Assembly: GCA_030614005.1 (NCBI GenBank)
Contig: JAUWKS010000008.1
Span: 43,380 to 75,379, forward strand
DNA length: 32,000 bases
Direction of reading: 5' to 3'
Origin: Candidatus Heimdallarchaeota archaeon
GTDB lineage: Archaea; Asgardarchaeota; Heimdallarchaeia; JABLTI01
The notes beneath the pieces were generated by a model that was not told where the DNA came from, ran no database searches, and saw only the letters and a list, made by a program, of their open reading frames with translations. Shown piece after piece: positions 27,172-28,900 of this stretch. Each line of letters starts with the position of its first letter. The first letter of the stretch is position 1. A program made the position numbers and the translations under genes.

Positions 27172-27753
27172 ATGGAAGATGAAAACGAATATTTGATAGG
27201 TGGAGATGAACTTTTTCACCATCCTCGTTTTATTACTCATTATGAGTTTATGTTAAAATTGTATGAGCCGAATAATAAACCGGTGGCATTTTTTATGAGC
27301 TGCTCAAAACATAAACCATTTTACAAATCGCCTTATCGTCGAGTATTCAATGCAATGATTGATAAAAAACTCAACATTAGAGAAATAAGTACAATATACA
27401 CCATTTCAGAACCAGCAATATTAATTCCTGAGGAATTTGATGATACAAATATAACGAAATACGATTTTCCACCTGCAGCAATGCAAGCAGAGGGAAAAAG
27501 AATATTTATTGAACGCTTAGCCACAGTATTGCCTAAACATCTTTTAGCTCATAAAAAAATATTTTACATCCTTCCAAAACATCACCGCAGCATTTTTGAA
27601 GCAGCTTTAAAGAAAATAAGTGAAGATACTACTCAGAAAAAAATAGTCAAAACTCTTATTGCTTCACGAATTAAATATGCACCTCCACTAACGTACAATC
27701 TCCCCAAAGCAAAAGCTATCATTGCACAAACATTAGATTTACAAATTGAATAG
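27172..27753 (+). CDS. Stand-alone DUF5591 / ArcS-core-like protein
   Basis: FFMSCSKHKPFYKSPY resembles the ArcS PCSxxKPY motif; followed by ISEPAILIPEE..YD; no PUA domain; 193 aa. Confidence 0.75.
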   Translation: MEDENEYLIGGDELFHHPRFITHYEFMLKLYEPNNKPVAFFMSCSKHKPFYKSPYRRVFNAMIDKKLNIREISTIYTISEPAILIPEEFDDTNITKYDFPPAAMQAEGKRIFIERLATVLPKHLLAHKKIFYILPKHHRSIFEAALKKISEDTTQKKIVKTLIASRIKYAPPLTYNLPKAKAIIAQTLDLQIE

Positions 27754-27775
27754 AAATCTAAGGTGTTAATAAAAT

Positions 27776-28900
27776 ATGAGCAACATTTCAAACCAATCAA
27801 ATGGTTTTGCAAAACAACAAACAACTAAAATTCATGCAAAGGATTTTGATACGCCAACAATGATGCTTACGTATTCTTTTCGTTTAAATAATCCTCGCCC
27901 TTGGAAGAAAATACCAAATTGTTCTGTTATGACTAATGCATATGATATTCTGCAAAATGGTCGATTAGAGAATCGAATTAAAACGAAAGGCATTCATTCT
28001 GAATTGGAATTAAATGGCGAGATTTGTGCAATGGATTCCGGAGGATTTCAATTCATCTCTCGAGGCGAAGGAGAAAAAATAGATCCACTTAAAGTTATTG
28101 AACTCCAAAACCAATCAGATGTTGATATTGCTGTTTGTTTAGATTACCCAATATTGCAAGACTTTTCTCAAAACAAAATTGAAAAATTGACTCAGCAATC
28201 TTTAGAGAACATAAAACTCTCTAATCAACACATCAAAAATGGTATTGAAGTTATGCCGGTACTTCATGGGAGAACTACAGATGAAATTCGTTCTTTTCAA
28301 AATCAAGTAAAAAAAATAGGTGATTTCAAGATTTGGGGAATAGGTGGTTTAGTCCCACAAATGAAACAATCATCAACATCACATAAACGATACTTCAGTA
28401 TAATTGATCGAGTAATAGAAGCAAGAAAAGGATTGAATAAAATTGATGACAACATCTTGTTACACATTTTCGGTGTTGGAAGCCCTCTAGCAGGACTACT
28501 TTTTCTATTGAGTGGAGCAGATAGCATAGAAAGCATTTCATGGATAATGAATGCAAAATATTTCTTAGTTTACCAAGATAAAATTGGTGCCAGAAAAGTA
28601 TCAAATAAGACCACTTTGTGCACAACTAGTGTTAAATGGGATGAATATAATTGTACCTGCCCAATTTGTGATAATTTAGACTTAAGTGTTATAGAGGAAA
28701 AAATGAAAGCCAGTGGGAACATTGGATTCCAAAATAGAGCAATGCATAACGCGTATGTTTATCAAAAAATACTTGTTGAAGCGAAGGAAGCTATCAATGA
28801 AAATCGACTAGTAGAATTATGTAAAGAGAAGTTAGGGCATCATCGCTTCTTTAAAGGGATTCTAAATTATACCCTAAAGAAACTTGAAAATTGCCTCTAA
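27776..28900 (+). CDS. tRNA-guanine-transglycosylase-fold protein, catalytic domain only
   Basis: MDSGGFQ, LDYP, GIGGLVP, HIFGVG, GADSIESISW, Zn site CTCPIC...HN; 374 aa with no C-terminal PUA/RNA-binding domains. Confidence 0.88.
   Translation: MSNISNQSNGFAKQQTTKIHAKDFDTPTMMLTYSFRLNNPRPWKKIPNCSVMTNAYDILQNGRLENRIKTKGIHSELELNGEICAMDSGGFQFISRGEGEKIDPLKVIELQNQSDVDIAVCLDYPILQDFSQNKIEKLTQQSLENIKLSNQHIKNGIEVMPVLHGRTTDEIRSFQNQVKKIGDFKIWGIGGLVPQMKQSSTSHKRYFSIIDRVIEARKGLNKIDDNILLHIFGVGSPLAGLLFLLSGADSIESISWIMNAKYFLVYQDKIGARKVSNKTTLCTTSVKWDEYNCTCPICDNLDLSVIEEKMKASGNIGFQNRAMHNAYVYQKILVEAKEAINENRLVELCKEKLGHHRFFKGILNYTLKKLENCL

Follow-up and report, generated by a model that had tools for sequence, protein, structure and literature searches.

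What does an archaeon equipped with canonical archaeosine genes do with a second set of genes for the same kind of base chemistry? The question is raised by a stretch of 32,000 nucleotides (nt) from Candidatus Heimdallarchaeota archaeon (assembly GCA_030614005.1, contig JAUWKS010000008.1, positions 43,380 to 75,379 of the forward strand; the whole stretch is called the window below), in which two adjacent genes, together referred to as the pair, encode a DUF5591 protein of 193 amino acids (aa), P0001, and a TGT-fold protein of 374 aa, P0002. According to the open reading frames (ORFs) and profile matches, the P0001 gene (27172..27753, plus strand) encodes a stand-alone ArcS C1-core (DUF5591) protein of the ArcS2 type, and the P0002 gene (27776..28900, plus strand) a TGT-fold base-exchange enzyme consisting of the catalytic domain only. 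We consider the chances about even that the pair is a domesticated second 7-deazaguanine module of the DpdA/ArcS2 type, whose target, judging from phylogeny and gene context, is most likely DNA. An earlier reading of the sequence alone (the sequence-only reading) had proposed a non-canonical insertase with its modifier, and this proposal has gained support from the existence of an additional gene set, the placement of P0002 in a separate clade of short TGTs, and the conservation of the pair throughout the family.

The two proteins and their active sites

By both profile and fold, P0002 is a member of the TGT superfamily. It matches the Pfam TGT family PF01702 with 99.4 bits (cut-off 26.3) over profile positions 9-354 of 357, and TIGR00449 with 94.2 bits (cut-off 47.6). 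Its best match in NCBIfam is the equivalog of canonical TgtA, TIGR00432, with 126.7 bits, below the cut-off of 350, and the profile of bacterial DpdA, NF041059, gives 22.7 bits, below the cut-off of 200; a search of the whole genome with NF041059 yielded no match. P0002 ends after the catalytic domain, and the C1, C2 and PUA domains are all missing. As the sequence-only reading had claimed, neither protein of the pair has a PUA domain: no PUA or TGT_C2 match was found in them, although the genome's own ArcS of 644 aa matches both profiles.

The AlphaFold2 (AF2) model of P0002, with a predicted local distance difference test score (pLDDT) of 89.8, is most similar to the catalytic domain of arcTGT from P. 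horikoshii (1IQ8; Z 38.7, root-mean-square deviation 2.4 over 341 residues, 24% identity), followed by bacterial TGT (Z 32.2), QTRT2 (Z 27.8), Salmonella DpdA (7UI4; Z 26.6) and CBASS Cap10 (Z 23.2).

In the alignment to 1IQ8, D87 of P0002 corresponds to the general acid/base D95 of the P. horikoshii enzyme, and D123 to D130; D123 and H164, the latter within PVLHG, occupy the base-recognition positions. The Zn site formed by C293, C295, C298 and H324 is intact and, like D87 and D123, invariant. Of the two catalytic aspartates of arcTGT, the equivalent of D95 is kept, but the nucleophile position, D249 of 1IQ8, is occupied by Glu (E252, within GADSIESISW). This position is Asp in 147 of 153 TGTs; among these, Glu is confined to the Heimdall clade and its sister sequence P0100, and it occupies the position in each of the 27 full-length orthologues matched. 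The substitution had been missed in the sequence-only reading, and the literature search found no precedent for a TGT with a Glu nucleophile. The Asp-to-Glu mutant of the E. coli TGT (D264E) reportedly retains some activity. All three active-site aspartates have been called invariant across both families, TGT and DpdA (PMC10164549).

P0100 (419 aa; locus L053, 1318-4780, on a metagenome contig) is the only non-Heimdall TGT found with Glu in the nucleophile position. Its gene lies directly upstream of a gene for a 717-aa TGT-family protein and downstream of a gene for a helix-turn-helix protein.

The base-reading position is His in 107 of 115 short TGTs, as in P0002, and Gln in 31 of 38 canonical long TGTs; the role of the equivalent His181 of DpdA in base recognition has been described (PMC10164549). 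Compared with TgtA/ArcTGT, P0002 has the equivalents of D95 and D130 and the Zn site in common, but differs in the lack of C1, C2 and PUA, in His instead of Gln and Glu instead of Asp249, and in clade. With the bacterial Dpd system (Salmonella DpdA/DpdB/DpdC) it shares the TGT fold, the base-recognition His and the same proposed double-displacement chemistry, while the nucleophile of DpdA is Asp256, and DpdB, DpdC and DpdD-K are missing here.

The second protein, P0001, matches the Pfam family DUF5591 (PF17884) with 37.5 bits (cut-off 26) and phrog_34505 with E 4.7e-18. Moreover, it shows 31% identity across the entire domain with STSV2_16, which is ArcS2 in Sulfolobus virus STSV2 (E 7e-21), and matches the genome's own ArcS with 21 bits only. 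The ArcS equivalog NF040592 gives 21.1 bits at a cut-off of 440, and the protein consists of the C1 core alone instead of the Nt-C1-C2-PUA architecture. The sequence-only reading had pointed to Cys44 in SCSKHKPF, and this residue is indeed present in a domain whose PF17884 match exceeds the cut-off. The motif of P0001, S-C44-SKH-K48-P49-F-YK-S53-PY-R, is a variant of the ArcS C1 motif PC-X3-KPY-X2-S-X2-H. C44, S45, K48, P49 and S53 are invariant in the orthologue alignment, and the motif of the clade, SC-X3-KP[YF]-X2-S-X2-R, fixed in ~50 orthologues, keeps Cys, Lys-Pro and Ser, while Pro is replaced by Ser and His by Arg. Relative to the ArcS that works with RaSEA, P0001 represents the C1 core, in which the motif retains Cys, Lys-Pro and Ser; the TGT-like N-terminal, C2 and PUA domains are missing.

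The AF2 model of P0001 (pLDDT 90.7) has as its top match in PDB the split-ArcS fragment AF0587 (2Q07; Z 12.8). The model also shows weak likeness to the uracil-DNA glycosylase superfamily (SMUG1, MUG and family 4; Z 6-7.5) and to E. coli YaaA/DUF328 (Z 6.1), which hints that the DUF5591 core may have a fold in common with proteins handling flipped-out bases, at Z values that a chance arrangement could also give. Longer, fused forms of P0001 were looked for and not found, though this counts as weak evidence.

Since both genes are conserved in ~30-50 database orthologues, they are real genes and not chance ORFs. The pair was also considered as a split ArcS, with P0002 as the N-terminal part and P0001 as C1. 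This was rejected: the N-terminal domain of ArcS has K and S at the positions of D87 and E252, whereas P0002 keeps the acidic residues and the Zn site and scores 126 bits against TgtA, compared with 16 bits against ArcS.

The fixed Asp-to-Glu change in P0002 and His-to-Arg change in P0001 point to altered kinetics, substrate or product. Every other catalytic residue is retained without exception, and the two proteins are strongly conserved; we therefore read these changes as a functional shift and not as decay. A very improbable alternative is that the pair is catalytically impaired and only binds, serving as a reader or sensor of 7-deazaguanines and not as a writer. It would account for the clade-wide replacement of two otherwise conserved motif residues, one of which is the nucleophile Asp described as invariant (PMC10164549), but Glu retains the carboxylate, the remaining catalytic, base-binding and Zn residues of P0002 and the Cys, Lys and Ser of the ArcS motif are strictly conserved, and the sister sequence P0100 also has Glu.

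Canonical archaeosine genes and inheritance of the pair

The assembly studied comprises 3.6 Mb in 126 contigs and is ~90% complete; the database orthologues and genome records used here are labelled as Candidatus Heimdallarchaeota or Asgard group metagenome-assembled genomes (MAGs). Contig C14 of this assembly carries a canonical ArcS of 644 aa (TGT-like, DUF5591, C2 and PUA domains) beside QueD and the only RaSEA gene of the genome (TIGR01210, 322 bits, cut-off 212). Canonical TgtA was not found in this ~90%-complete assembly. At least six genomes of the same genus hold a canonical TgtA of 532-540 aa besides the pair, that of the closest relative scoring 491.5 bits with TIGR00432 (cut-off 350). 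The sole TgtA-flanking gene located in our genome lies ~350 bp from the end of contig C7 (C7 ~40184-41316), the side on which TgtA would be expected facing beyond the end. Hence, the absence of tgtA is best explained by an assembly gap, and the presence of the gene is deduced from the contig end and the genus-mates. QueC is similarly missing from this assembly, but every one of the 11 other family genomes has it, with scores above the cut-off in 10. The absence of TgtA and QueC from the MAG could mislead automated pathway calls.

Since ArcS, RaSEA and QueD are present on C14 and TgtA co-occurs with the pair in the genus-mates, the pair is an additional set of genes besides the canonical archaeosine pathway. 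The separate canonical genes suggested for checking in the sequence-only reading have therefore been seen directly in the case of arcS, with RaSEA and QueD next to it, and only deduced in the case of tgtA. The outcome named there as fatal to the proposal, that is, P0001 and P0002 being the only ArcS and TGT genes of the genome and grouping with the enzymes of tRNA position G15, did not materialize. Specifically, P0002 as the only TGT of the genome was rejected by the analysis of the C7 contig end and the co-occurrence of TgtA in the genus-mates.

These observations also bear on the explanation in which the pair duplicates or replaces the archaeosine pathway at G15, its TGT being perhaps the only insertase in this genome. 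The failure to find canonical TgtA in the assembly favors it, and ArcTGT lacking the PUA domain is said to still form archaeosine. Nevertheless, we hold this explanation to be quite improbable: the assembly gap explains the absence best, the genus-mates keep TgtA together with the pair, full ArcS and RaSEA are kept here, and P0002 differs from the G15 enzymes in clade, base-recognition residue and nucleophile.

Almost every genome of the genus, and the sister genus as well, has orthologues of the two genes side by side in an unchanged order, the TGTs being 66-94% and the DUF5591 proteins 54-85% identical. No other gene of the neighborhood is as well conserved as that of the TGT (94/75/70% identity). 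In other families of the class there are no orthologues, only short TGTs with ~30% identity. The locus is flanked by conserved genes, encoding a membrane-anchored longin on one side and a 372-aa protein on the other; GAPDH-like, TrmB-like and AFOR genes follow at a greater distance, and surface proteins are also encoded among the neighbors. Conservation of the pair, proposed as a check in the sequence-only reading, thus extends over the whole Heimdallarchaeial family (two genera), with synteny preserved.

The GC content is uniform across the whole window (~32%), that of the pair being the same as in its surroundings. Recent horizontal acquisition was rejected on account of this agreement and of the conserved synteny. 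The chromosomal synteny across two genera likewise shows no sign of carriage by a virus or mobile element, and two scans of viral contigs, with the TGT alignment and with the DUF5591 alignment, found no relatives. The pair is vertically inherited, chromosomal and located outside any defense context.

Short-TGT relatives and the probable target

To which TGTs is P0002 related? In a FastTree phylogeny of 153 sequences rooted on ArcS, the canonical arcTGT clade (n=40, support 0.98) contains TgtA of the genus-mates, while P0002 falls into a clade of short TGTs (n=112, support 0.99), which comprises the Heimdall group (support 1.0), the STSV2_15 DpdA and copies from defense contexts. The phylogenetic comparison called for by the sequence-only reading thus sets P0002 apart from the canonical G15 enzymes and beside a viral DpdA. 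Consistently, a hidden Markov model (HMM) made from the short clade, with the Heimdall sequences left out, gives P0002 310 bits, compared with 176 bits from the arcTGT HMM. Among 1.8 billion cluster representatives searched, the Heimdall orthologues form one cluster, and the next ~100 matches are TGTs of 300-420 aa with 27-35% identity, ranked above the canonical arcTGTs of 500-700 aa. Given the order of the structural matches, the short clade is an arcTGT-derived lineage distinct from bacterial DpdA.

A like pair, consisting of adjacent genes for a TGT-fold protein and a stand-alone DUF5591 protein (~185-195 aa) without PUA domains, is found in STSV2 (also in STSV1 and STSV4) as DpdA STSV2_15 and ArcS2 STSV2_16. 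P0002 is 22% identical to STSV2_15 (E 2e-9) and belongs to the same short-TGT clade. The gene order in STSV2 is reversed, the ArcS-core gene being first in our pair, and the STSV2 pair is viral, whereas the Heimdall pair is chromosomal and vertically inherited. STSV2_15 lacks the CxCxxC...H Zn site kept in P0002, which in turn has Glu and not Asp as the nucleophile, and the motif of P0001 ends with Arg and not His, unlike that of the STSV2 ArcS2.

Pairs of DpdA and ArcS2 have been described in viruses, and some archaea have been noted to possess stand-alone C1 domains (PMC10516641); the literature search found no paper on Asgard DpdA or ArcS2. In E. coli, DpdA2 of Vibrio phage nt-1 alone puts dPreQ0 into plasmid DNA and together with the nt-1 ArcS2 yields dG+ (PMC10516641; see also PMC6884629); for no other such pair has the formation of dG+ in DNA been shown by experiment (PMC10516641). 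The logic is the same as in our pair, that is, guanine exchange plus an ArcS core, with reliance on preQ0 synthesized by the host or by the element itself. Sequence similarity to the nt-1 proteins is marginal (TGT, E 0.035; ArcS core, E 1.1), and the nt-1 genes lie within a preQ0-synthesis cluster, while the Heimdall pair stands alone. The claim of the sequence-only reading that the window holds no preQ0-synthesis, dpdB-D or radical-SAM genes is correct, none having been found among the window genes; DpdB and DpdC are also absent from the syntenic loci.

The gene neighborhoods of other short TGTs are of a different kind. As in the case of bacterial Dpd, relatives from the short clade adjoin ParB-like and DUF6884 proteins. 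Some short TGTs are next to DUF6884/YaaA-like proteins and N6/N4 DNA methylases, one adjoins a DUF5591 protein, Vut_1 (a YhhQ-type preQ0 transporter), DUF6884 and MazG, and some lie within multi-TGT clusters. In the same class (L071 and L072 set), short TGTs are located between UvrD helicase, PD-(D/E)XK nuclease and DNA methylase genes, or between those of AIPR, DNA methylase, PLD-type restriction nuclease and STAND NTPase. The closest relative has a second short TGT beside two DNA methylases and an AIPR/Mrr protein (L035, 5253-11778; genome G010, contig C26); the 247-aa gene upstream of it is not a recognizable DUF5591 (15% identity, no family match). Such Heimdallarchaeia paralogues of the short TGT, lacking a recognizable DUF5591 partner, are candidate TGT-containing restriction-modification systems. 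The defense library PADLOC gave only weak generic TGT matches, and PHROGs only a weak match for the TGT. Taken as guilt by association and not as proof, these neighborhoods suggest that the short clade usually acts on DNA.

Relatives with 30-35% identity form DUF5591-TGT pairs followed by genes of a nucleoside 2-deoxyribosyltransferase and a HAD hydrolase, in the vicinity of HerA/NurA, ParB_N, FokI-cleavage and PIN/MazE genes. This four-gene operon occurs in defense-island-like settings on two metagenome contigs (L038, 7265-10748; L040, 7226-10924), where the DUF5591 proteins are 247-255 aa long. The deoxyribosyltransferase and phosphatase suggest undescribed nucleotide-level 7-deazaguanine chemistry. 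In this connection, one may ask whether the Heimdall pair acts on something other than a nucleic acid, namely, on a protein by 7-deazaguanylation, as does CBASS Cap10, or, in salvage or a small-molecule pathway, on nucleotides or bases in free form. Cap10 belongs to the TGT family and deazaguanylates protein (bioRxiv 10.1101/2025.04.06.647259); the P0002 model matches it (Z 23.2), the nucleophile of P0002 is altered, and the genes following some distant pairs suggest nucleotide-level chemistry. However, no Cap9/QueC-like, CD-NTase, deoxyribosyltransferase or HAD gene lies beside the Heimdall pair, Cap10 is a much weaker structural match than arcTGT, and the partner is an ArcS core, whose known relatives act on polynucleotide-bound preQ0. 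A target of this kind is hence assigned little probability.

DNA is the most likely target because both proteins are closest to the DpdA/ArcS2 lineage of viruses and defense islands. By homology, we infer the following chemistry and product. P0002 would be a Zn-stabilized TIM-barrel transglycosylase that, without C-terminal tRNA-binding domains, flips out a guanine, D123 and H164 reading the base; it would cleave the glycosidic bond with D87 as the acid/base and E252 as the covalent nucleophile, and insert preQ0 supplied by the QueD/QueE/QueC pathway of the cell. P0001 would then act via Cys44 on the nitrile of the inserted preQ0, converting it to an amidine (G+-type) or a related derivative. 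The target would be other than G15 of tRNA, and probably DNA, given the closeness of both proteins to that lineage, which may have been domesticated in one Heimdallarchaeial family as a core-genome function that is passed on vertically and does not depend on restriction.

Several observations weigh against DNA as the target or against the proposed activity. The neighbors of the pair include no nuclease, methylase, helicase, ParB/DpdB or restriction partner, and genes for RNA modification are more typically inherited vertically in a housekeeping neighborhood than those for DNA modification or defense. The nearest solved structure is a tRNA enzyme, arcTGT, well above bacterial DpdA. To our knowledge, the STSV2 DpdA is the only member of the short clade with an experimental link to DNA. 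Features of the two sequences would fit a DNA and an RNA target equally. The nucleophile Asp, invariant according to PMC10164549, is Glu, so the activity of P0002 could be reduced or different. Finally, the DNA of STSV2 carried dCDG and not dG+ (PMC10516641).

The main rival explanation is an RNA-directed paralogue, inserting and modifying preQ0 at a non-G15 position of tRNA or in another stable RNA as a lineage-specific housekeeping function. The vertical inheritance, conserved synteny, non-defense neighborhood and lack of a restriction partner agree with it, as do the fold match to the arcTGT catalytic domain over 341 residues, TIGR00432 as the best NCBIfam match, and the mildly basic character of both proteins of the pair (pI 8.8 and 9.2). 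On the other hand, P0002 groups with viral DpdA and copies embedded in restriction-modification systems and not with tRNA enzymes, lacks the PUA, C1 and C2 RNA-binding domains, and has the DpdA-type His in place of the Gln usual for tRNA TGTs, while P0001 is far nearer to viral ArcS2 than to cellular ArcS. Overall, we regard the RNA-directed function as a possible but rather unlikely alternative to the DNA-directed module.

Extending the DNA reading, it is possible, though we would not call it probable, that this Heimdallarchaeia family constitutively marks its own chromosomal DNA with a 7-deazaguanine, either of the dG+ type or a new derivative, by means of a domesticated DpdA/ArcS2 pair that is independent of restriction and uses a Glu nucleophile; the mark would then be orphan epigenetic or genome-protective and not a function of a defense island. 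Modification of DNA with 7-deazaguanines is known from phages, archaeal viruses and bacterial Dpd defense islands. New here are the stable, vertically inherited and defense-free setting in an Asgard family, the coexistence of the pair with the full canonical archaeosine pathway, and the fixed Glu nucleophile together with the altered ArcS motif; the literature search found no paper describing these three features. If true, a restriction-less core-genome version in Heimdallarchaeia, an Asgard group near the stem of the eukaryotes, would be to 7-deazaguanines what orphan DNA methyltransferases are to methylation, and would widen the chemistry known in archaeal epigenetics. Should RNA be the target, the pair would define a new site of archaeosine-type modification. 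With either target, the clade-wide Asp-to-Glu swap is a natural experiment on the transglycosylase mechanism and a simple sequence marker for the Heimdall TGT subfamily.

Expression signals and neighboring genes

The P0001 and P0002 genes are co-oriented and separated by a spacer of 22 nt (27754-27775), which contains a Shine-Dalgarno-like AAGGTG with a GGTG core (27760..27765, plus strand), 10 nt before the ATG of P0002. The short spacer with its Shine-Dalgarno site suggests that the pair is co-transcribed and its expression coupled. Both ORFs, the distance between them and the ribosome-binding site had been described in the sequence-only reading, and the coordinates proved exact. Upstream, a TATA-like A/T-rich stretch read from the sequence, TTTATTAATAAAGG (27116..27131, plus strand), lies ~45-55 nt before the ATG of P0001, in the divergent intergenic region of 180 nt shared with the longin gene, and is a possible archaeal promoter of the two-gene operon. 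The window contains no tRNA genes and no matches to Rfam families.

Directly downstream of the pair and convergent to it, the gene of the conserved 372-aa protein (29993-31111, minus strand) is present in 8 of 8 syntenic genomes with 62-83% identity. The protein has no match in Pfam, PHROG or PDB, except for a very weak nucleotidyltransferase-like one; its functional link to the pair is conceivable. A gene for a surface protein of the choice-of-anchor S family (NF041737, 177 bits; 28998-29945, plus strand) separates the 372-aa gene from the pair in a part of the family's genomes only, being a variable slot in an otherwise fixed locus. Further downstream, two ORFs of 130 aa and 82 aa (31203-31906, minus strand) both match a single gene of the closest relative, encoding a 439-aa TSP3-repeat surface protein (L028, 12466-13785); as two ORFs correspond to one gene, this gene appears to be split here by a frameshift, pseudogenization or an assembly error.

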